DNA of 51,816 nt from an uncultured bacterium (GCA_903825415.1 CAIKAN010000051.1:1-51816), one strand, 5' to 3'; positions 15,962-31,755 are shown, numbered from the stretch's first letter. The notes: generated by a model from the letters alone, not told the origin. Made by a program: numbers and translations.

Positions 15962-16432
15962 TTAATTCAACTGCCAGATCGCAAAATTAAGATAACCAGC
16001 GAAGCTGACCCAAAGGAGATAGGGCAAGAGAAGCCAGACGGTCGGTCGAGAGATCTTGGCGAAGGAGATGATCGTGGCTAGAATGGCGAGCCAGAGCGAG
16101 ATGATCTCAATGAATGCCGCGCCGGGAGAATTCAAGTAGAAGAAGATGATCGACCAGAGCAGGTTGAGCGCCAGCTGGAAGCTAAAGATGCCTAGAGCGA
16201 TCTTGGCCGGCCTAGTATCGAAACCCTTCTTCCAGATTAGGAAAAGCGCTATGCCCATGAGAGCGAATAATATCGTCCACACCGGTCCAAAGATCCAATT
16301 GGGCGGAGCGATCTCTGGTTTTACGAGATAGGCATACCAACCAGCGATCGATGGCATGGTTAAGAAAGAGCCGATGATGCCTACTAGCTCTGCTATGACG
16401 ATAGAGACTATGAATTTGAGAGTGTTATTCAT
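15962..16432 (-). CDS. tspO: TspO/MBR family tryptophan-rich sensory protein
   Basis: Five TM spans with WYAYLVKPEIAPPNWIFGPVWTILFALMG and LNLLWSIIFF signatures. Confidence 0.9.
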   Translation of the reverse strand: MNNTLKFIVSIVIAELVGIIGSFLTMPSIAGWYAYLVKPEIAPPNWIFGPVWTILFALMGIALFLIWKKGFDTRPAKIALGIFSFQLALNLLWSIIFFYLNSPGAAFIEIISLWLAILATIISFAKISRPTVWLLLPYLLWVSFAGYLNFAIWQLN

Positions 16433-16502
16433 AGGATGATTTTAACATACTCTGCGATTTTATAGGGCGATTGCTTACGATCGCTAGTATCATAGTCCAT
16501 AA

Positions 16503-22102: not shown

Positions 22103-22825
22103 ATGAATCAAGACAATAAACAGCAATATGCCTTAAGTCGTTTCATTAATGTGATAAGGGATCTGTTGAAAAGTCAGGGGTATTTCGACTATCATCTATA
22201 CTCAACGACGAAGTATAGGATTGAAAATACGGATACATTCAAGGTTAAAGATGATCTGTATTTGCGGTATAATCCAGAACCGGATATCTGGCAGGTAGGA
22301 TCGGTTCACGACAAGTTCTTCTGGATAGGGAGCATGTTCAGGGACGAGAAGAAGATCGATAAGCTGCATAGCAATGAATTTACCGTAGTCGATATCTACC
22401 AGTCCCATGGGACGATGGAGCAGGTCGTTGATAAATATCTTGAGATATTAAGAACTTTGGAAAAGGAATTGAAGTTGCCGAATCTCTCCTTGCTGGAGGT
22501 TGATCATATTAGTCACAAAGAATTTTCCAAGTTGGGTAAAGGCAAATCAAATGATAAGCACTGGTTGGTCGTTACGGAATATCCGACAAGGGAGTCGTTC
22601 TATGATCTTCAAGGTGAGTATACTGAGAATACTTTGAAGTTCGAAATATTTTACGTTGATGGCGATAGAGTGATTGAAATTGCAGCTTGTGGCAATCTTG
22701 GATAAAACTTGAATATAACCAATTATATTTCGGGTGAGGCCGATTTCCTAAACAAGGATATCTTACAGAAAAAATTCATAGGTTTTGGCATAGGTTTGGA
22801 AAGATTGGTAAGTCTCTACTATTAA
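22103..22825 (+). pseudogene. minimal class II aminoacyl-tRNA-synthetase-like catalytic core (subclass IIb/EpmA/AsnA-like) interrupted by one in-frame TAA
   Basis: Motif 2-like FRDEKKIDKLHSNEFTVVD lies before the stop at 22703-22705. After the stop the same frame reads NLNITNYISGEADFLNKDILQKKFIGFGIGLERLVSLYY*, with GFGIGLERL as class II motif 3. 723 nt is 241 codons. Confidence 0.7.
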
Positions 22826-22865
22826 AGGTATTGGATATAGAACCTATCTATTATCTACTCCGCTA

Positions 22866-23468
22866 TTAACTCTTTAATAATGTTGGTTGCGCTTTCTCAA
22901 ACTCAAAGAGCTCGGAATCGCGTATCAGGATCGTCTTATTTGTTGTGTATGAGATGCCCTTATTTGGTTGTGTCTCGAAGCCTAAGTACAAACAACTTAT
23001 TTTGCGCCGACGGATCTCCTTGATTGCTGGTTGTAAATCAGAATCCGAGCTTGTCAATATGATCTCCATGACCTTCTTGTCGCAAGCAAGGCTTACCATG
23101 TCCACGGCAATTTTCACATCGACACCCTTTTCTTTAAATACCAATACTTTCTTTCCGTCGTAGCCGTCTTCCATTTGGCCTCTTACTCTGCCGCTTAGTA
23201 TGACCTCAAAACCCTGCGCTTCAAGATGGGTCTTGAGTAGGCGTTGCTCCTCTATAAGCTCCTTTGATTTTTCAATGCTCCGCTCATGCTCTTTGATACG
23301 AGCAAAATAAAATACTTTCTTGTCTATCTTTATATCTTTGAGCACTTTATCAAAAAGACCTCTGAAATCGTATTCGTTCCATACAATCATGGGCTTGCGA
23401 GCCTCCTTGAAGACGGTACGCATTTTGCCTTTTAGATTCTCGCCATCAACCAACAAGATTGTTTGCAT
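22866..23468 (-). CDS. NYN-domain (LabA/DUF88-like) protein, putative RNase
   Basis: ILLVDGENL...GVDVKIAVDM...ILTSSDSDLQPAI pattern of NYN/PIN-like nucleases. Confidence 0.7.
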   Translation of the reverse strand: MQTILLVDGENLKGKMRTVFKEARKPMIVWNEYDFRGLFDKVLKDIKIDKKVFYFARIKEHERSIEKSKELIEEQRLLKTHLEAQGFEVILSGRVRGQMEDGYDGKKVLVFKEKGVDVKIAVDMVSLACDKKVMEIILTSSDSDLQPAIKEIRRRKISCLYLGFETQPNKGISYTTNKTILIRDSELFEFEKAQPTLLKS

Positions 23469-23494
23469 GGCCGTATTCTATCAATAAGTAACGC

Positions 23495-23780
23495 AAAACC
23501 CCAGCGGACCGTGAGGCTGGCTGGGGCGTGTATGTCTACACTCTACTCTTTTGTCTACAAAAGTCAATTGAGTGATTAGGGTTGTGTATACCAAAAGAAT
23601 GCCTGATGGTACTTGGCAGTACCTCTTTTGCTTGCTCCGAGAGCGGGATTCGAGTCTTACAGACTCTGTTCAGGTTTCCCATTTCTTCGCATCCTCCGCT
23701 ATCGCTACGGTTGCTTAGAAATATGGGAAACCTTTTCGAATCCTGACGCGAGTGCCGCAGGGCACTCGCTTCTCCCTCGC
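23495..23780 (-). ncRNA. candidate structured RNA of unknown class, bounded by two terminator hairpins
   Basis: No credible ORF. Minus-strand hairpins at 23748-23769 (9 bp), 23673-23732 (14 bp with a 2-nt bulge) and GAGTC-TGTAA-GACTC. GGATTCGA and TCGAATCC are complementary 8-mers at 23736-23743 and 23646-23653. It ends in CCCCAGC...GCTGGGG TTTT (23495-23526). Confidence 0.3.
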
Positions 23781-23820
23781 AAAATATAAAAAGCACCCTT
23801 TGGGATGCTTTTTATATTTT
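23781..23820 (-). terminator. intrinsic terminator of the island cargo operon
   Basis: AAAATATAAAAAGCA...TGCTTTTTATATTTT palindrome, including a GC-containing core stem and a T-run. Confidence 0.7.
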
Positions 23821-23946
23821 GCTCCGCGTTGCGAATGAAATATCTACCTACTTTAAGACCACAAAGGAGTACCATTACATCCCAAATTTGAAGGATGGCA
23901 TCTATGAACTTACCCGGCCGACGACAGAACAGTTGGCAGCAATCAG

Positions 23947-24219
23947 CTAGTCTTTGAGAGAAATAACCTGCAAGCCCTTGCTATCAATATCTTCTCGAGA
24001 CCAGAATTTTGTAAGATCATCAATTTTCCACTTACCGACATAACCGACAGTCTTCTCGAGTGTTCTACCGGTGTAGTTTTTTGTATTAGGGTCCCATTCG
24101 TTAAGTACAAGAGTGTCTCCTTCAGAAATATCAAAATCATTAAGCCTTAATTCAAAGGTCTTTTTACCATCGACTATTTGCTGAAAGTATTCAGGCCAGA
24201 CTTTTTTCTCTATTTTCAT
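23947..24219 (-). CDS. ASCH-domain protein (DUF3850-like)
   Basis: KVWPEYFQQIVDGKKTFELRLNDFDISEGDTLVLNEWDP...YTGR matches the ASCH/DUF3850 pattern. Confidence 0.7.
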   Translation of the reverse strand: MKIEKKVWPEYFQQIVDGKKTFELRLNDFDISEGDTLVLNEWDPNTKNYTGRTLEKTVGYVGKWKIDDLTKFWSREDIDSKGLQVISLKD

Positions 24220-24239
24220 GATTAAGCTATTCTAGCATT

Positions 24240-24545
24240 TTATTTTTCCTTGCGTGGTCCCCACTGCCAGCGTGGTCTTTCTCCTTTCTTGTAGCAGATA
24301 AAAATAAGAAGAGTGGTCAGTACAATGATCGGCAATCCGAATACCAAGAGATTGCTTCCTGAATCAGGATTTCCTGGTATAGCTTCTTCTCTGTTGAACA
24401 CGAGGGCTATGATTAGCGCGACATATGCAAGAATCACAAGCCAACCCTGCCATTTGACCGGAACCCAGCCCCAGCCATAGAGTTTGGCTTTAAACCAGTG
24501 GCCTTGCGGGTTGTCTTTCAAATATTCTATGTATTCTTTAATCAT
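24240..24545 (-). CDS. small membrane protein (2 TM)
   Basis: 101-aa ORF, 5 nt from the upstream gene. Confidence 0.5.
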   Translation of the reverse strand: MIKEYIEYLKDNPQGHWFKAKLYGWGWVPVKWQGWLVILAYVALIIALVFNREEAIPGNPDSGSNLLVFGLPIIVLTTLLIFICYKKGERPRWQWGPRKEK

Positions 24546-24550
24546 AGTTT

Positions 24551-24862
24551 TTATTGATCCAGTTCACCATCAGTGAATTGGCTATCGATGACTGCTTTAC
24601 GGTACTTCAACATTTCGAGGTCTTTTTTAAGCTCGGCATTTTGCTGTTGCTCCTGTGCGATTACTGTTTCGAGCCCCTGAAGGGAATAGGTAAAACCTTC
24701 CTTCAAGTGTTCTTTGAGGTCTTGCATACCCAATGTTTTCTTTTCAACTTTGAGCCTTGCACCTAAAACAGCCAGCTCCTCATCTGACATTTTTATGTCA
24801 TTTTCTTTTGCGGCAATTTCTGCTATGGCCTGATCGATTAAATGTTGTTTGAGATTTTTCAT
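24551..24862 (-). CDS. coiled-coil hypothetical protein
   Basis: 103 aa, charged, with heptad-like sequence. Confidence 0.5.
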   Translation of the reverse strand: MKNLKQHLIDQAIAEIAAKENDIKMSDEELAVLGARLKVEKKTLGMQDLKEHLKEGFTYSLQGLETVIAQEQQQNAELKKDLEMLKYRKAVIDSQFTDGELDQ

Positions 24863-24946
24863 GGAAGTAAGAAAAGTTGATACGACTATTCTATCACGGA
24901 TGACGAAGATGAAGATTCGTAAGTTATCGTTCGGATAAAATATCAG

Positions 24947-25237
24947 CTATTGAGTAACTGTAACAACCAACCCAATACTTCCCAACACCTTAGCTACCTT
25001 TTCACATTTCTCATTTGAACCTTCACATACTATTACACTTCCAGTACGGTCAGCAAAAAATGCTAGATTATCAGCCCTCTCTTTTGTGCATTGGATAGCT
25101 CTTATAATCTGTAGAGTAACAGCTTCAAAGGTATGACAATTACAATTAAATAAAATAGTTTTCCAACCCGATGAATGGGTCGGATCAGTTGTTAACGTCA
25201 TATTTATCGGACCTATTTTGGTGCCGTCTGTACTCAT
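24947..25237 (-). CDS. ClpS-like (N-degron adaptor fold) protein
   Basis: WKTILFNCNCHTFEAVTLQIIRAIQCTKERADNLAFFADRTGSVIVCEGSNEKCEKVAKVL parallels the ClpS core (v.l.NDd.t.fe.V...l......A......h..G.a.v). Confidence 0.5.
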   Translation of the reverse strand: MSTDGTKIGPINMTLTTDPTHSSGWKTILFNCNCHTFEAVTLQIIRAIQCTKERADNLAFFADRTGSVIVCEGSNEKCEKVAKVLGSIGLVVTVTQ

Positions 25238-25244
25238 AATATTT

Positions 25245-25865
25245 TCAATCTTTCTTTAACATTTTATAAATGCGCTCAGCAGATATAAGTTTATTTTCCT
25301 CATCTACTGCGCTCATTTGACCTTGCACATAATTCACCAAGGCTTCGTCGTTATTACCAACCACTTCTTGTAATGCTCCAAGTGCATAAGCAACTATACT
25401 TTGTCCCTCTTTCTCTACTTTTCCTTGTGCCATTTTTAATATTCCCACAGCCAGTTCATGATCACCCATCTTTTGAGCACTTAGAGAAGCCATACACCAA
25501 GGCGCAGCTTTATAGGGTATTAGGGCAATTTCTTCTGTGAAAGCTTCGTAGGCTTCCTTGTATTTTTCTAGTTCTGTATAGTCTTCACCAATATAACTCC
25601 ATATATAAGGGAAGCGAGGTTCAATTTCTATAACTTTTTTATAGTGTTGAATTGCAGTCTCATAATTTTTTTCTGATTCAGCGATTTTGCCCAGATAAAT
25701 GTAGGCAATACCGTTATTTGGATTGGGTATTAAAAAATTAATACATTTTTCTTTACAGGTATTGTATTCCTTATTCTTAAAATCATCGACGATATCATCA
25801 GGCAAATCTCCTAAAGATTTAAATGTTCCGGTATTGCTCATACACTGAATTTTACTCGATGACAA
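25245..25865 (-). CDS. TPR-repeat protein
   Basis: Repeated A..Y.G.......Y..A...Y.KA.E..P-type 34-aa units (for example YLGKIAESEKNYETAIQHYKKVIEIEP). Confidence 0.8.
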   Translation of the reverse strand: MSSSKIQCMSNTGTFKSLGDLPDDIVDDFKNKEYNTCKEKCINFLIPNPNNGIAYIYLGKIAESEKNYETAIQHYKKVIEIEPRFPYIWSYIGEDYTELEKYKEAYEAFTEEIALIPYKAAPWCMASLSAQKMGDHELAVGILKMAQGKVEKEGQSIVAYALGALQEVVGNNDEALVNYVQGQMSAVDEENKLISAERIYKMLKKD

Positions 25866-25904
25866 GAGCTAAAGTAAAGGATATGAATATGGACTGGATC
25901 ACCA

Positions 25905-26147
25905 CTATGACTTTGCTTTTTCTTCCTCCATATCAAGTAATATTTTCTCGACAACCTTACCCATAGTACTTTTCCTACGTGCTTGGGTGAAATCGTATTC
26001 CTCCTGGGTCATTGGTTTGTAGACTGCCTTCATGAGAGTCAAAAGCTGCGTACCTTTTGCGAGAGCTTCAGCGCGAGAAATATCCTTATTGAAATGCTTT
26101 TTATACAGCGCCTGAAAACTTTTGAGATCCTTATCAGTTAATTGCAT
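25905..26147 (-). CDS. hypothetical protein (80 aa)
   Basis: ORF tightly packed within the operon. Confidence 0.45.
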   Translation of the reverse strand: MQLTDKDLKSFQALYKKHFNKDISRAEALAKGTQLLTLMKAVYKPMTQEEYDFTQARRKSTMGKVVEKILLDMEEEKAKS

Positions 26148-26153
26148 ATATTT

Positions 26154-26462
26154 TTATGGGCGTTGCCACCACGCAACGATTTTACCGACGATTAATAACA
26201 ACACGCCATATCCTGCGAGAGTGACTCCGTACAACATGCCTGGTATATGTAAATCAATACCGCCTTGAACTGGGGCATTGTTACCGGCCCAGGCAAGTCC
26301 GCCCAAAATCATCAGAACAGAAACAAGGATTAGTAGCTTTCCGGTTTTCTTAACTTTGTGACCGCCTTCAACGCGCACTTTCGTGGAGCCGCCAAGACCA
26401 AGCCAGGCCCCTAAAATTAGGACCACAAGACCTCCAACCACGGTAATAAATAATTCGCTCAT
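26154..26462 (-). CDS. small membrane protein (3 TM, Gly-rich)
   Basis: 102-aa hydrophobic ORF. Confidence 0.5.
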   Translation of the reverse strand: MSELFITVVGGLVVLILGAWLGLGGSTKVRVEGGHKVKKTGKLLILVSVLMILGGLAWAGNNAPVQGGIDLHIPGMLYGVTLAGYGVLLLIVGKIVAWWQRP

Positions 26463-26504
26463 GTGGCAACATTATTCCTAGAAGTCAAAAAAGTAAAGAG
26501 TCAA

Positions 26505-28040
26505 TCAGGACGGGAGTTTTCTTGATGTTTCCTTTTCAACACGCAAGATACAGCCTCGAAATTTAGATGTGTCGGGGAATATTTGGAAACCGCAGTTACT
26601 AAATAGCTTCTCAAGACCACTCTGGGTATATTCATCAAAAGAATCTTCTGCGGAAATCCAACCAGAAATCCTGTTAACATTATTCGCCTCAGCAAGGAGT
26701 GTAAGAACTTTAAGCATTTCCTTAGCCCATCCACAATTTCTATTTTTGGTATCAACAAAAAGATCTTCAATTTCAATTTGTTTTTCTTTTACACTGAAAT
26801 GTAGCCAACCCCCTTTCTTCTTGTCTTTATCACGCTTGTCAAAGAAATTGATGATGAAAAAATTACCACGATTTGGATTTATCGCTGGAACGTTTAATAT
26901 TTCATAAATTACATCAACTGATCTTTTATCTTTCCACGAGCCAGTCCTTATTACTTTCCGTTCCTTCCTGGTTTTGAAAAAAGTCTTCCAGACTCTTAGG
27001 TTGAATATACGGTCCCAAGAAAGTGTGCGCACAAACATATTCTGTGCCCAAGACTCAATTAAATATTTGTTGATATAATCCCAAGTGAAAAAACCTACGC
27101 CATTATCTCCCCAATCTCGTCCCCAGGAATTAGCAAAATAAATACCATCTTTGTCATAACCAATTGCAACAACGCAGTGTTGTCCCATGGATCTTTCTCC
27201 TTCTACTGGCATCGGTACGTGTCCTTTTGGAGCAGATATAATACTTTCAAAAATATCAATTGAAATAGATGCTGCATGAAAATGATATATAGCGTATCTT
27301 ATTTCTTCTGCATTATAGAGCCGCTGATAGTATTCGATTCTGTGTTTCAACGCATTTTTGGTGGCGGCCTCGGGTATCTTTGTATTCATTAGCTCCCATT
27401 CAGTCTCGTATTCTTTGTGGGGAAAATATTTCTCCTCACAAATACCATACAGCTTAGTGGTTCTAACCGTAGTGATAACGCTCATGCCGCGATTTGTTTT
27501 CATTTCTTGCGGATTTTGAGTGTCCCACTTTCCATTAATAAATTTAACTAACACCGCATGTTTGCCTCGATATTTGAGTACCTCTCTTCGTATTACACCT
27601 AAAGCTCCGGGCATTGAGTTGAGAGCTGATCCAAGACTATCCTTCGAATTCAGCGTCGAAATAAGAAAACATGTTCTAAGTGGAAAATCATCCATTCTTT
27701 GAATCTCAGATACTAAAAGTATCTCGGCATTTCTCCCTTTGTTCTTTAGATTTTTTATCCAGGATGTGATTTTGTTGTAGTGATCAGCACCAGCTTGGCC
27801 GACTATTCCAGCAAAGTAGCTGGTTACAATAAAAACAGCGGCATATTTTGTGTAATCAAGAAATTCGATAATCTGCGCTGGAGCTGCAGATCGCACCTTA
27901 GATTCTAAAAGCCCTCTCTTTGTCTCAAAGGCTAAAACACCGTCTTTTCTCAGCTCTTTCTTAAAAACATTTAGTTCATCAGAAAATGCTGGATCAATGT
28001 GTGGAATTTCTATGAAAACTTGCGTTGACTTGCGGTTCAT
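26505..28040 (-). CDS. multidomain protein: unknown N-terminal domain, papain-like (C1) peptidase fold, GNAT-like C-terminal domain
   Basis: QHCVVAIGYD...ANSWGRDWGDNGVGFF is the His/Asn-Trp half of the papain fold. The C-terminus (IEDLFVD...NCGWAKEMLKVLTLLAE...GWIS...LFSNCGFQ) is GNAT-like. Start set to ATG 28040 (MNRKSTQ) rather than 28202. Confidence 0.6.
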   Translation of the reverse strand: MNRKSTQVFIEIPHIDPAFSDELNVFKKELRKDGVLAFETKRGLLESKVRSAAPAQIIEFLDYTKYAAVFIVTSYFAGIVGQAGADHYNKITSWIKNLKNKGRNAEILLVSEIQRMDDFPLRTCFLISTLNSKDSLGSALNSMPGALGVIRREVLKYRGKHAVLVKFINGKWDTQNPQEMKTNRGMSVITTVRTTKLYGICEEKYFPHKEYETEWELMNTKIPEAATKNALKHRIEYYQRLYNAEEIRYAIYHFHAASISIDIFESIISAPKGHVPMPVEGERSMGQHCVVAIGYDKDGIYFANSWGRDWGDNGVGFFTWDYINKYLIESWAQNMFVRTLSWDRIFNLRVWKTFFKTRKERKVIRTGSWKDKRSVDVIYEILNVPAINPNRGNFFIINFFDKRDKDKKKGGWLHFSVKEKQIEIEDLFVDTKNRNCGWAKEMLKVLTLLAEANNVNRISGWISAEDSFDEYTQSGLEKLFSNCGFQIFPDTSKFRGCILRVEKETSRKLPS

Positions 28041-28105
28041 AATATTGAGTATTATATTCTTTTTACGATTTGATATAAAGCTAGACTTCTCCTGGACCTT
28101 CCGGT

Positions 28106-28330
28106 ATGTTCGTGTGTGTGAAAAAAGTATTTGTAAAAGCAACACCGAAAGACATAAACGGCACAGGTTTTGTCGGATATCTCCAAGTCTCATACGAGGC
28201 ACTCTTTAACTCTTTCAGCTTTCCCAACGATCGTACCCGAGAAGATGAATGGAGATCAGGCGACCAGAAGACTCGGGTAGAATGGGCATTCAAGACAAAG
28301 GGCAAGAAGCCGACCGTCATAACAATTTAG
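28106..28330 (+). CDS. small hypothetical protein, first gene of the rightward island operon
   Basis: 74-aa ORF divergent from the cargo operon. Non-repetitive, protein-like sequence. Confidence 0.4.
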   Translation: MFVCVKKVFVKATPKDINGTGFVGYLQVSYEALFNSFSFPNDRTREDEWRSGDQKTRVEWAFKTKGKKPTVITI

Positions 28331-28400
28331 GAAGCGATCAAACTCCTGACAGTCTTCGACTACATCTATCGGCCTATCAAGAAGGTGTGGCTCAAAGACT

Positions 28401-29408
28401 ATGAACGACGATATAAAGATTTTCCAGGAGTGGTCACAGCCGGAGAAGAAGAAAGTGCAGATAGCGCACGCATACCACAAAGCGAAGATCGAGGAACTGA
28501 AGAATCAGATTGACCGAGCGGTCCTTCGCGGCAAGAGAAAGCCTACTCGCTTTTTCATGGAGAATGAATTTGTGGAGCATGGCTATATGGGAAAGTTACC
28601 GAAACTCTGCACGCTCGTCTATTGCGCAATTCTAAAGCATGGCAATACCGAGACACAGGTCGCCTGGCCAAGTTTGACTACCATTCAAGATCTGACCGGC
28701 GAGAAAAACAGAAACTATGTTGCCAATGCGGTCCGGCTTCTTGTTGAGTGCAGTATTCTTGGTGTGGTCCAAGCAAAAACTGGCTTTAAGACCTTGAACC
28801 TCTACTACTTCAAGTCGGTCGATTTTTGGAAAAGCATCGCTCATGTTAGCAAGCGTCTGAAGCTCAAGGATTCAGTTGCGCAGTATCCAGATGTGCGTCT
28901 CCGTAGTATCCGAAAGCGCAGAAACCGTAGTATTAACGTAGATACTCTAACTAACCAAAATAATAAATCTCCTAATTCTTTAACTAGCATCGGAGATTTC
29001 TTAAAAGGAAGAATGCAGAAATGGCAGATACCGCCTGCAGTTGCTATTCCAGAGGCTTCTGGGCATAGTGTCGTTCGGACAGAAGAAGAAAGACAATACC
29101 CTTGGAGACAGAAACAAGAGGGTCCCTATGAAGGAGTAGATTCTCCTGATAGATCAGGAGAATTACAGGATAATCGCAGTATCGTAGAAGATACTACGGT
29201 CATTCCCGTAAATACGGGTAATTTACGGGAACCAAACTCTGTTGAGACCCCCGAAGAACCACCACTCGGTAGTATCTCACTCGATACTGCGGAACCACCA
29301 TTTAAAAACGGTGGAAAAGCGGTCGAGAGCGCATTTGAGACCCACACAGAATTAAGCCTGGACGACATAACCCAAGAAGACCTTGGACCAGGAAAAGCAA
29401 CATTATGA
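28401..29408 (+). CDS. winged-helix (HTH) protein, replication-initiator or DnaD-like in mobile elements
   Basis: LCTLVYCAILKHGN...AWPSLTTIQDLTGEKNRNYVANAVRLLVECSIL. 4-nt ATGA overlap with the recombinase gene. Confidence 0.5.
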   Translation: MNDDIKIFQEWSQPEKKKVQIAHAYHKAKIEELKNQIDRAVLRGKRKPTRFFMENEFVEHGYMGKLPKLCTLVYCAILKHGNTETQVAWPSLTTIQDLTGEKNRNYVANAVRLLVECSILGVVQAKTGFKTLNLYYFKSVDFWKSIAHVSKRLKLKDSVAQYPDVRLRSIRKRRNRSINVDTLTNQNNKSPNSLTSIGDFLKGRMQKWQIPPAVAIPEASGHSVVRTEEERQYPWRQKQEGPYEGVDSPDRSGELQDNRSIVEDTTVIPVNTGNLREPNSVETPEEPPLGSISLDTAEPPFKNGGKAVESAFETHTELSLDDITQEDLGPGKATL

Positions 29409-31057
29409 ACCCAAAGATAAACGCACCAATTAAATACTTTCTCTATGCCCGAAAATCGAGCGAGGCTGAAGATCGCCAGGCAGCATCAATCGATGCCCAA
29501 AAAGACGAGCTTTTGAAGATTGCCAAGGATCAAGGCTTAAACGTCATCGGTATCCTTGAGGAATCACAATCGGCAAAGAAACCAGGGAGAAAGATTTTCA
29601 ACTCCATGCTCGAGAGAATCTATAAGGGTGAAGCTAACGGCATCCTGTGTTGGAAATTGGACCGACTCGCGCGCAATCCTGTAGATGGCGGACAGATAAG
29701 CTGGATGTTGCAGCAGAGTGCGATATCTCAAATTGTCACTTTCGGCAGAACATACTATCCAACAGACAACGTCCTCATGATGCAAGTGGAACTTGGCATG
29801 GCCAATCAATTTATTCGTGACCTCTCTGTGAACGTAAAGCGAGGTCTGCAAAAGAAAGTGAGAGATGGCTGGATGCCGAGCGGCGCACCTGTCGGCTATC
29901 TCAACACGCCAAATAAGCAGAAGGGATACAAGACCCTGGAGAAGGATCCTGAGAGATTTCCATTAGTTCGAAGGCTCTTTGACCTTGTACTTACCGGCAA
30001 CTATTCGATTGCGCAAATCTGGAACATCTCCCGAAAGAAATTGAACCTGACAACAGTGCCGCGTAAAAACATTGGCGGTAAGCATCTCTCACGATCAGGA
30101 ATCTATGCACTCCTAAGCAACCCGTTTTATTACGGCTGGTTTGAGTTTCCACTGCATAGCGGTGAATGGCACAAAGGCAGTCATGAGCAGATGATAACCA
30201 AAGAGGAGTTTGATCGGTGCCAGAAGATTATGGGCCGTACCAGTCAGCCTCGGCCGAGAGAAGAAAGACTCTTTGCTTTTACCGGCATGATGAAGTGTGC
30301 AACGTGCGGTTGTAGTATTACCGCCCAAGCGAAAGTAAAACGCCAGAAGAATGGCAATGTTCACCATTACACCTATTATAATTGCACCAAAAAGAGATAC
30401 GATGCCGAATGTGATGAGAAGCATGTCGAGGTAAAACTTCTACATTTCCAAATCGGAGCGGTACTCCAGGATATACGAATTTCAGAGGAGTATCGTGATT
30501 GGGCCATTCGTCATGTTCATGAGGTCCGCAAGAATGAGGCTGAAAGTAATTCAATGGCACTCAAGACAAAACATAAGGAGTGCGAAGAAGTAACACAGCA
30601 GCTGCAGTCATTGACCTTGAATTTTACTGGACCAACTAATAAGGATCGAACCATCATCAGCGATGAGGAGTATCAAGCTCTCAAGTCGGATTTACTCAAA
30701 AGAAAGGGTGTCCTAGAGGACGATTTAAAGTTTAAGAATAAGGCTGTAGAACAATGGGCTGAACTTTCAGAGCAAACCTTTGACTTTGCCTGCTATGCCC
30801 ACCTTTGGTACGAAAATGGGGACGAAAAGATCAAAAGAGCGATACTCGCATGCCTTGGCTCGAACCTCACCATAAAGGGCAAAAAACTCCAGATTTCCTA
30901 CACTTCTTTCTTTTTGAGCCTCATAAAAGCACGAGATGCTATTGAGCAGGAAATTGAGCACGCTCGAACCTATAAATATCCAAGCCTGACAAAACAAAAC
31001 AGGCATGATGTGCCTGTTTTGTCACTAGGGCTCCGGAGACAGGATTCGAACCTGTGA
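29405..31057 (+). CDS. large serine recombinase
   Basis: Catalytic YARKSSEAEDRQ and LDRLARN (resolvase domain), a recombinase domain, a zinc ribbon (CATCGC...YYNCTKK) and a coiled coil. The last 27 nt overlap the tRNA-Asn 3' end. Confidence 0.9.
   Translation: MNPKINAPIKYFLYARKSSEAEDRQAASIDAQKDELLKIAKDQGLNVIGILEESQSAKKPGRKIFNSMLERIYKGEANGILCWKLDRLARNPVDGGQISWMLQQSAISQIVTFGRTYYPTDNVLMMQVELGMANQFIRDLSVNVKRGLQKKVRDGWMPSGAPVGYLNTPNKQKGYKTLEKDPERFPLVRRLFDLVLTGNYSIAQIWNISRKKLNLTTVPRKNIGGKHLSRSGIYALLSNPFYYGWFEFPLHSGEWHKGSHEQMITKEEFDRCQKIMGRTSQPRPREERLFAFTGMMKCATCGCSITAQAKVKRQKNGNVHHYTYYNCTKKRYDAECDEKHVEVKLLHFQIGAVLQDIRISEEYRDWAIRHVHEVRKNEAESNSMALKTKHKECEEVTQQLQSLTLNFTGPTNKDRTIISDEEYQALKSDLLKRKGVLEDDLKFKNKAVEQWAELSEQTFDFACYAHLWYENGDEKIKRAILACLGSNLTIKGKKLQISYTSFFLSLIKARDAIEQEIEHARTYKYPSLTKQNRHDVPVLSLGLRRQDSNL
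30990..31022 (-). terminator. terminator hairpin downstream of tRNA-Asn, lying inside the recombinase ORF tail
   Basis: CAAAACAGGCA-tgatg-TGCCTGTTTTG. On the minus strand it is followed by TTTTGT. Confidence 0.65.
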
Positions 31058-31068
31058 CCAATCGCTTA

Positions 31069-31637
31069 CATTGCTCCTATTGTTACTAATAGGGATGGAC
31101 TATATCATTCCCGTGTTCTTGATTGTTCAAGAGTTTAGGGACGAGGGGCTTCGTTCCTCGACTATGCTCGGAACTACTCCTGAAAAGGATAGTCTCTACA
31201 CCTTCCTAGTCCGTTTGAAATGACTAGGCTCGGCTCGGGATTGCCCCAAAGCTATTAACTTCTGGGTTTCCCCGAATTCACCTCGTTTTCGACCAAGATT
31301 TCTCTTGGAAGCTGCAAGATGCCTGCTTCAACTTCACAATGACAGTTGGCGCATAAAAGGATGCATTTATCTAATTCTGCTCTTACTTTTGTCCAAGAAC
31401 GCGTATAGCCTTTGTCACCGATACCAAAGCTCTTTTCGTCTTTGTTGATATGGTGAAGTTCTAATGCATTCTGACATCTGTTGTAATTGCAAATCTGACA
31501 TTTGCCACCTTTATATTCTATCGACAAAGCTTTTACCTTGCGTCGCCTTTTGGCAACAGCCTTGATAAGTGCTTCACGTCGATCGGCATATTTTCGATTG
31601 TCTGACATAATTACATTATATCAAACAGTCTAAGTTT
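31069..31637 (-). mobile_element. group I intron (IC3-like core) with an embedded homing-endonuclease ORF
   Basis: The exon ends in U and the intron ends in ...GGAGCAAUG. GGGGCAAUCCCGAGCCGAGCC lies at 31247-31227 and GAAGGUGUAGAGACUA at 31205-31190, with a GACUAU/AUAGUC P7-like pairing. Confidence 0.75.
31255..31608 (-). CDS. HNH homing endonuclease (intron-encoded)
   Basis: CQICNYNRC...LELHHINKD...LLCANCHCEVE (CxxC...HH...CxxCH). Confidence 0.8.
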   Translation of the reverse strand: MSDNRKYADRREALIKAVAKRRRKVKALSIEYKGGKCQICNYNRCQNALELHHINKDEKSFGIGDKGYTRSWTKVRAELDKCILLCANCHCEVEAGILQLPREILVENEVNSGKPRS

Positions 31638-31755
31638 ACAGGCGACTGCTCTACCGCTGAGCTACTCCGGAATATGTTTCTTTTAAAGAACGGGCATCTG
31701 GAAATGTACCATATCTAGCTGTGCAAATCAAAATGCGATACATTATAGGGATAGC

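Follow-up and report, generated by a model that had tools for sequence, protein, structure and literature searches.

The stretch of DNA analysed here, which we call the window, is a contig of 51,816 nucleotides from an uncultured bacterium (GCA_903825415.1 CAIKAN010000051.1:1-51816); it is contig C51 of a 1.05-Mb, 99-contig genome, the source genome (G000). It very probably carries a 7.2-kb integrative element, at about 23827-31035, which lies at the extreme 3' boundary of a tRNA-Asn gene and whose large serine recombinase (LSR) would have recombined an attP site within its own open reading frame (ORF) with an attB at the end of the tRNA. The evidence for this reading comprises the two junctions, the split ORF, natural uninterrupted forms of the recombinase, occupied and empty sites in relatives, recurrence across the family and a coding type of evolution in the split-off tail. 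An earlier note on this DNA had already proposed an integrated element mobilised by an LSR at this tRNA-Asn, and both the junctions and the comparative evidence support that proposal. The host, with a genome of about 1 Mb, looks Patescibacteria-like, and the records nearest to the window recombinase carry the labels Paceibacterota, Taylorbacteria and Minisyncoccia (Patescibacteria/CPR).

In the proposed mechanism, the LSR would act on an attP in the 3'-terminal part of its own ORF and recombine it with an attB that consists of the acceptor end of the tRNA, the discriminator, C74 and the first trailer bases, with crossover within GCTC (+ strand). The tRNA body (positions 1-74) would remain host-derived and intact, with nothing of it duplicated, and its native trailer and terminator would be moved 7.2 kb away (23775-23826), an antisense hairpin of the element within LSR codons 531-540 taking over their place. 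Integration would also split the LSR ORF. The free form of 584 amino acids (aa) would turn into an integrated form of 550 aa, its last 40 residues being exchanged for RQDSNL; the 40 displaced codons would lie at the other end of the element, and excision would rejoin the 584-aa ORF. The predicted circle junction is ...CACTAGG-GCTCCG-CGTTGCG..., in longer form ...GTCACTAGG-GCTCCG-CGTTGCGAATG..., and the predicted empty site is ...TTTATATTTT-GCTCCG-GAGACAGG..., also written ...TTTATATTTT-GCTCCG-GAGACAGGATTCG....

Target tRNA, junctions and the split reading frame

ARAGORN called no tRNA near 31000, because a group I intron splits the gene. This intron was matched by Rfam (RF00028) at 31076-31339 on the minus strand, and the sequence flanking the match reads as two halves of tRNA-Asn(GUU). 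The intron-less tRNA was found in three lake-water runs (X2-X4) as a high-depth contig joint from 31068 to 31638, with a joint depth of 38-79. The joint sets the intron limits at 31069-31637 and with them the two exons (Table 1); the insertion point lies between anticodon positions 35 and 36. An intron-invaded tRNA, as described in the earlier note, is thus confirmed by both match and joint. As the exon limits place the discriminator base at 31031 and the stop codon of the LSR occupies 31055-31057, the LSR ORF ends 27 nt inside the tRNA, again as previously described. An ORF of 117 aa inside the intron (31255-31608) showed no family match, and a second, uninterrupted tRNA-Asn is present in the same genome (C89:688-762).

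By every sequence feature tested, the protein encoded by this ORF is a large serine recombinase. It comprises an N-terminal Resolvase domain (PF00239, E = 3.5e-20, residues 12-155), a Recombinase domain (PF07508, E = 6.7e-9) and a Zn_ribbon_recom domain (PF13408, E = 1.1e-7). Both R16 and S18 of the R-x-S nucleophile motif and the zinc-ribbon cysteines (Cys298/301/327/336) were invariant in an alignment of 30 homologs, and the nearest similarities in NCBIfam, to XisF and Ccr, were below cut-off. The 550-aa extent and the ATGA overlap with the upstream gene (29405-29408) were as first described. For the structure, we relied on the AlphaFold2 model of a homolog (P0021, 69% identical) and not of the window protein. 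Confidence in this model is high over the catalytic, recombinase, zinc-ribbon and coiled-coil parts, up to about residue 519, and the coiled coil lies in the zinc-ribbon domain, with helices 359-406 and 418-469 flanked by ribbon strands (confidence score, pLDDT, about 85). Residues 519-571, i.e. the linker and most of the tail, have a pLDDT below 50, with one short helix over a conserved motif. A swap of the tail would thus take off a flexible extension and leave all folded domains intact.

The hexamer GCTCCG is found identically at 23821-23826 and 31030-31035. A longer direct repeat flanking the element was not found, and the shared identity amounts to a core of 4-6 bp: 6 bp in the window, with GCTC as the minimal core across the family. 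No tRNA fragment is duplicated at the element ends either, which have only GCTCCG in common, and the tRNA body is unbroken by the element. The left end thus falls within the range first given for it (between 23469 and 23946), and the absence of long direct repeats holds, whereas the right junction, first placed just left of about 30990, has to be moved to 31030-31035. LSR residues 1-544 are element-encoded and residues 545-550 (RQDSNL) are templated by the antisense T-arm of the tRNA. The tail of the ORF is therefore indeed templated by tRNA DNA, but only 6 residues are concerned and not about 20 as had been estimated.

Across 120 homologs (45-98% identical), the C-termini are conserved through ...KQNRxxxPxLSLGL and then diverge at once. 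At least 33 of them continue with ..DSNL, ..DSNPRPIG or similar, in which DSN corresponds to the universal tRNA T-arm in reverse complement (GATTCGAAC translated as D-S-N); in 47, a stop follows within a few codons, and about 14 show a different long tail, alike among themselves. The earlier note had regarded an alignment of the tail with homologs as an argument against integration. Such homologs do exist (P0009, P0015 and P0017 also end RRQDSNL), and they support the integration rather than refute it, because they too abut tRNA-Asn.

At the left end of the element, the frame from 23825 reads RVANEISTYFKTTKEYHYIPNLKDGIYELTRPTTEQLAAIS*, and joining 29405-31035 to 23827 onward yields an ORF of 584 aa. 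The tail of this joined ORF aligns over 42 residues with the tails of two uninterrupted homologs, P0006 (584 aa) and P0021 (582 aa). A further uninterrupted LSR of 584 aa, 86% identical to that of the window, is encoded with an HTH_36 gene upstream on a contig of 10.9 kb that has no tRNA (L162). The cargo of this contig is defence-like (EcoRI-type methylase, GmrSD/HNH nuclease, hydrolases).

Displaced tail pieces were also found in five related loci (L012, L066, L033, L019 and L056), on the LSR strand, 5.5-8.8 kb upstream and each directly after the core; in the first four, GCTC directly precedes the tail. In the case of L056, a tRNA-Ser locus, the shared core as read from the printed junctions is GCGGAG, and it covers tRNA positions 69-74, just as the core at tRNA-Asn does. 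A scan of metagenomes with the tail peptide gave 79 loci, 71 of them with GCTC directly before the tail. Between the tails of L012 and L066, the closest displaced-tail pair and a small sample, more distant pairs being saturated, there were 12.8 synonymous and 8.2 nonsynonymous differences (pS 0.54, pN 0.08), which corresponds to a pN/pS of 0.15; for codons 13-36, past any plausible attP half-site, pN/pS was 0.09. The value of 0.15 indicates that the joined ORF is probably expressed.

Occupied sites, empty sites and terminators

The comparison with empty sites, suggested in the earlier note, was carried out at the species level and not at the strain level, with local synteny not conserved. In 16 other genomes of the genus, the tRNA-Asn 3' end is within two mismatches of the window 22-mer. 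Five of these sites are occupied: an antisense LSR follows ...CGGAGC immediately, and it encodes a hairpin. Nine are empty; no recombinase is present there, and the native trailer (mostly CGGAGC-A...) comes with a terminator whose sequence is unrelated. Occupied and empty sites part ways right after ...CGGAGC. Of the remaining two, one (G065) holds only an LSR 3'-end relic of about 70 nt, and the other (G108) is uninformative, with its tRNA-Asn 3' end abutting the contig end. As a synteny anchor the NYN gene on the left flank failed, not being conserved in the genus, and a search with left-flank DNA returned a dispersed repeat and one non-syntenic match only.

Beyond tRNA-Asn, 80 related loci were collected from species-representative genomes, and in 75 of them the LSR stop was in reach. 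The stop lies inside an antisense tRNA in 39 of these 75 (Asn 15, Ser 10, His 8, Trp 2 and one each of Lys, Ile, Ala and Gln), or in 42 if three LSR ORFs are added that run right across a tRNA, one of them tRNA-Leu. The source genome itself encodes two further LSRs of the family. The first crosses tRNA-Arg(gcg) (C54:12232-14061, minus strand), with a small repeat wedged between LSR end and tRNA and a tyrosine recombinase just upstream (C54:14261-14836); the second reads into tRNA-Gln(ttg) (C18:489-2099, plus strand). LSRs of the broad family gave at least one match at E <= 1e-30 in 68 of 92 other genus genomes (about 0.5-1.4 Mb), with up to 11 per genome. Members of the clade are also present in metagenome-assembled genomes labelled Omnitrophota, Elusimicrobiota, Ignavibacteria and Gammaproteobacteria, and a viral-contig collection yielded 4 distant relatives only. 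Among 20 whole-contig loci, no terminal overlap was found and none was demonstrably circular.

Concerning the hairpin at 30995-31021, the earlier note had taken it for the host tRNA's own terminator, with the att junction left of about 30990 and about 20 C-terminal residues encoded by the host. The hairpin is real, lies directly after the minus-strand tRNA and is terminator-like for it. However, it overlies the LSR codons KQNRHDVPVLS, which are conserved across homologs of 45-98% identity, and it is therefore part of the element. Homologs at different tRNAs and the uninterrupted forms alike conserve the codons that overlie the hairpin, as far as SLGL. Moreover, empty tRNA-Asn sites have unrelated terminators, the LSR-encoded hairpin being found at occupied ones, and the native terminator was found displaced at 23779-23822. 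A terminator belonging to the host in this position is, in our judgement, very improbable.

The same arrangement recurs in relatives. The 55 nt of element DNA past the tRNA 3' end, antisense to LSR codons, fold in RNAfold with a mean of -14.4 kcal/mol at 43 loci, against -7.9 for antisense 55-mers inside the same genes, a comparison whose P value is inflated, the loci being related. Stem sequences vary between lineages, while the hairpin and the T-rich run after it persist, and the peptide over the hairpin is rich in K/Q/N/R because the sense strand is A-rich. The displaced trailer at 23775-23826 has an architecture (CGGAGC-A..., then a hairpin) like that of the empty tRNA-Asn sites in genus relatives. 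Neither junction hairpin was listed by a simple terminator scan; both were found with RNAfold.

It could also be argued that the island was brought in by another recombinase, e.g. in trans by a tyrosine integrase, with the LSR as a passenger. Three tyrosine recombinases are encoded in the genome, tRNA 3' ends are their classic targets (PMC4383910), and a small repeat with tRNA 3'-end duplications adjoins the left junction. Against this, Pfam searches found no tyrosine recombinase in the element, the ends share a core of 4-6 bp without any duplicated tRNA fragment, the LSR keeps a fixed position and orientation relative to the junction at dozens of loci and nine different tRNAs, and the split falls inside the LSR's own ORF. 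We find a passenger LSR hardly credible.

A different question is whether the element has become an immobile relic, with an ORF run-on and a tail piece that are leftovers without present function and a recombinase no longer able to excise. Signs of decay are found in this family, such as the LSR 3' stub at the tRNA-Asn of G065, truncated LSRs in tandem arrays of relatives and, within the element, a decayed small-protein copy (28331-28405). In the window, however, neither the LSR ORF nor the tail piece of 41 codons nor either core is damaged, and the tail is under purifying selection in relatives. In addition, a 98%-identical LSR (P0001) is located at a slightly different tRNA-Asn, with the tail RGQDSNLRPIP in place of RRQDSNL*, which implies recent movement between hosts. 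We consider a relic unlikely. The present copy is presumably still competent for excision, and its 550-aa form is presumably active.

Several points weigh against integration by the LSR as proposed above. Firstly, neither an excised circle nor an empty site was observed in the case of this strain. Logan contigs (about 5x, four runs) contained no joint skipping or circularising the element; as such contigs drop rare variants, the missing joint says nothing on excision. Secondly, L162 is not demonstrably circular and might be a single unit out of a tandem array. At tRNA-Asn, such arrays do occur, made up of a relic and an active element (L171 and L169), and therefore attP-like junctions arise in chromosomes too. 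Thirdly, many tail-bearing metagenome loci have no LSR within 10 kb downstream, so that some elements must be longer than 10 kb or decayed. Furthermore, the first 12 or so tail codons overlap the presumed attP half-site, with ACC as the Thr codon in all 6 sequences; part of the tail conservation could thus be at the DNA level. The crossover is placed to GCTC only and not to the exact dinucleotide. Finally, the related loci are phylogenetically non-independent, and counts and P values overstate the support.

If integration did occur as proposed, the exchange of tails might act as a sensor of the integration state. The 584-aa form ends in a conserved C-terminal motif, ...[ML][LV]x[DE][IV][RG]T[FY][FW]..., followed by ...YIPNLKDG.Y...PT..., which could tune activity, stability or partner binding and which the 550-aa form would be without. 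We put this forward tentatively, as a possibility rather than an expectation.

Cargo, flanking DNA and small repeats

Table 1. Features of the element and its target, in window coordinates
Feature	Position	Strand	Basis
Displaced native 3' trailer of tRNA-Asn (CGGAGC-AAAATAT...) and original terminator	23775..23826	-	20-bp hairpin 23779-23822, -27.2 kcal/mol, z = -7.4
Left junction core GCTCCG (hybrid att site)	23821..23826	+	Identical hexamer at 31030-31035
Displaced LSR 3' end: R544 + 40 codons (VANEISTYFKTTKEYHYIPNLKDGIYELTRPTTEQLAAIS) + TAG	23825..23949	+	Joined ORF, homologous left-end pieces, pN/pS
ASCH/DUF3850 protein, 90 aa (cargo)	23947..24219	-	Pfam PF12961, E = 1.5e-19
Two small proteins of unknown function, 101 + 103 aa (cargo)	24240..24862	-	ORF calls
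ClpS-like protein, 96 aa (cargo)	24947..25237	-	Pfam PF02617, E = 4.9e-10
TPR protein, 206 aa (cargo)	25245..25865	-	Pfam TPR_1, E = 2.6e-14
Conserved small protein of the element family, 80 aa	25905..26147	-	Homologs near LSR in relatives; no family match
Protein of unknown function, 102 aa (cargo)	26154..26462	-	ORF call; no family match
Papain-like (Peptidase_C1) protein (cargo)	26505..28202	-	Pfam PF00112, E = 2.3e-7; phrog_16701 peptidase
Relic of a second conserved small protein gene, C-terminal half (EAIKLLTVFDYIYRPIKKVWLKDYE)	28331..28405	+	tblastn
HTH_36 (winged-helix) protein, 335 aa	28401..29408	+	Pfam PF13730, E = 2.9e-8
LSR, integrated-state ORF, 550 aa	29405..31057	+	Pfam domains; phrog_95 integrase, E = 3e-66
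Predicted element-borne replacement terminator of the tRNA, antisense within LSR codons 531-540	30995..31021	-	-19.3 kcal/mol, z = -4.65
Right junction core GCTCCG	31030..31035	+	tRNA positions 69-74 antisense: last four acceptor bases, discriminator G73, C74
Target tRNA-Asn(GUU), exons 31638-31671 + 31031-31068, with 569-nt group I intron	31031..31671	-	Rfam RF00028, 52.1 bits; intron-less joint

The low-GC island of the earlier note proved to be the cargo operon (23947-28202, minus strand), with a GC content of 38.8% against 46.2 +/- 2.0% for the genome; among 4.5-kb windows of the genome, this falls at the 0.1 percentile. At 45.5%, the HTH_36 and recombinase genes are ordinary for the genome. 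Of the mobility module described in the same place, HTH_36 and LSR stand, while the small ORF of 74 aa (28106-28330) is doubtful: none of the related elements contains a homolog of it, and it is perhaps not a gene.

The 80-aa protein has homologs in 29 related loci (24 at a stricter cut-off), on the LSR strand and 0.2-4.4 kb upstream of the LSR, and in L055 such a homolog is fused to an HTH_36-like domain. These features make it a candidate for an accessory or directionality factor. A relic of 25 codons, located right behind the stop codon of the 74-aa ORF and overlapping the HTH_36 start, matches members of this family in L030, L032 and L034 (tblastn, 67-68% identity over 24-25 aa, E about 1e-11). 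The ancestral order of small protein, HTH_36 and LSR thus seems to have been broken when the cargo was acquired. Homologs of the HTH_36 protein lie directly upstream of the LSR in 22 related loci and in L162; the protein is possibly a replication initiator or a regulator.

In the case of the papain-like protein, the true start is probably the ATG at 28040, ahead of which a promoter-like site is found on the minus strand (28079-28051). The 101-aa and 103-aa cargo proteins had no match in Pfam, PHROG or NCBIfam; for the former, one homolog was found, adjoining the displaced tail in L066. Searches of PHROGs, NCBIfam, PADLOC and the protein atlas left the small cargo proteins without an assigned function, and likewise the HTH_36 and 80-aa proteins. 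An inovirus was considered and dropped, as the element proteins showed no match to a morphogenesis ATPase or another phage structural family.

Outside the element, the left flank (22103-23468), with an aaRS-like and an NYN gene, has a GC content of 39.8% (0.6 percentile) and might represent an earlier acquisition of foreign DNA at this hot spot. For the NYN protein, a match to the PADLOC candidate HEC-09 was obtained (E = 8.7e-11). The class II aaRS-like ORF (22103-22705) is truncated by an in-frame TAA, but position 22703 reads G and not T (GAA) in the covering contigs, one each from runs X1 and X3 at full depth; the TAA may thus reflect the assembly or strain variation, and the truncation may not be real. 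An Rfam search of 23300-24000 at relaxed threshold returned nothing credible.

Between the NYN gene and the displaced terminator lies a hairpin-rich repeat of about 120-150 nt (23635-23765), for which Rfam gave no match. Further copies in the source genome are found at C90:27539-27619, C90:27289-27315, C13:8063-8152, C54:12350-12469, C86:7218-7314 and C16:14654-14694. Each copy opens with 20-22 nt of a tRNA 3' end, from the T-loop TCGAA through the acceptor end, followed by a 5-bp hairpin with covarying stems. The tRNA-end copy matches the neighbouring tRNA exactly in C86, C54 (tRNA-Arg) and C13 (tRNA-Val), and that of the window repeat has no match among the tRNAs of the source genome. Copies lie 3' of tRNA and tmRNA genes, and matches to this flank occur in 43 of 92 genus genomes. 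Judged by its sequence, the repeat may be a miniature integrase-less element targeting the T-loop. In the genus relative G108, two copies of the tRNA-Asn 3' 22-mer (GCTTCGAATCC..., one T-stem mismatch; L116 and L117, C19:10773-10794 and 16425-16446) lie 5.6 kb apart on one strand, separate from the real tRNA-Asn end at the contig edge, and could bound another element.

Significance and comparison with known systems

Serine integrases are workhorses of genome engineering and are thought to prefer sites within genes, and tRNA genes are regarded as a preserve of tyrosine integrases. The clade described here would be a large and easily recognised group of serine integrases that land precisely at the tRNA 3' boundary. 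As the ORF crosses the junction, attB and attP of each member can be read from sequence, which would provide many natural integrase/site pairs aimed at conserved sequences and would allow an exact delimiting of the otherwise hard-to-map mobilome of ultrasmall bacteria. The self-splitting ORF would also be a simple route to state-dependent control of recombination. If the tail does act as a sensor, the recombination product itself would control the directionality or the expression of recombination.

Compared with known LSRs (phiC31, Bxb1, A118/LI, TnpX/TndX, CcrAB, XisF), the architecture is the same, i.e. Resolvase, Recombinase and zinc-ribbon domains with a long coiled coil in the zinc ribbon, as are the short att sites with a very short shared core and no long direct repeats. 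Known members enter protein-coding genes or intergenic sites, however, and a review of integrative and mobilizable elements (PMC5704250) places the sites of serine recombinases inside genes. Here, the target is the tRNA 3' boundary, attP would lie within the integrase's own coding sequence, and the element would supply a replacement terminator.

Islander-type tRNA islands of tyrosine integrases (PMC4383910) likewise use the tRNA 3' end, preserve tRNA function and have the integrase gene adjoining the tRNA. In contrast to these, the present element carries or displaces no tRNA fragment, its ends share 4-6 bp and not tens of bp, and it would restore the terminator and not the 3' part of the tRNA. 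A displaced tRNA 3' copy at the far end, as in Islander-type islands, was not found; the tRNA-like fragment at 23635-23653 belongs to the separate small repeat. Tycheposons of Prochlorococcus (bioRxiv 10.1101/2020.12.28.424599) are, according to the available passages of that source, also small cargo elements at tRNA-adjacent islands with replication-type genes, and 27 of 937 carry a large serine recombinase. They differ in host phylum and gene content, and these passages do not describe LSR-type att sites or an ORF-spanning attP. In the literature covered, which is incomplete, so that an earlier description is possible, we came across no account of serine integrases that use tRNA 3' ends and have attP in the ORF.

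An ORF-spanning attP has its closest analogue in the SSV-type 'suicidal' tyrosine integrases known from viruses and plasmids of archaea (PMC7253208, PMC8371274), which the present system resembles in this respect without being a member. As in these, attP lies inside the integrase ORF, the gene is partitioned on integration at a tRNA gene, and the intact integrase gene exists only in the free form. The two families are unrelated, one being of the tyrosine and the other of the serine type (the window LSR matches serine-recombinase families only, and a tyrosine-recombinase fold was not found), and the hosts are archaeal in one case and bacterial in the other. The SSV split gives two inactive parts and a duplicated tRNA segment, whereas here only a 40-residue, probably unstructured tail would be exchanged and, as modelled, the folded domains would stay in one ORF.

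A consequence of integration for a protein's C-terminus has a parallel in the integration-dependent immunity of mycobacteriophages, in which attP reportedly lies in the 3' end of a phage gene and integration alters the C-terminus and behaviour of the protein (Broussard et al. 2013). In that system, the protein affected is a repressor, the integrase is of the tyrosine type and the functional consequence was shown, whereas it is hypothesised here. If the tail swap does report the integration state, the window LSR would represent a serine counterpart of both the SSV 'suicidal' integrases and integration-dependent immunity, in a widespread clade at tRNA 3' ends.

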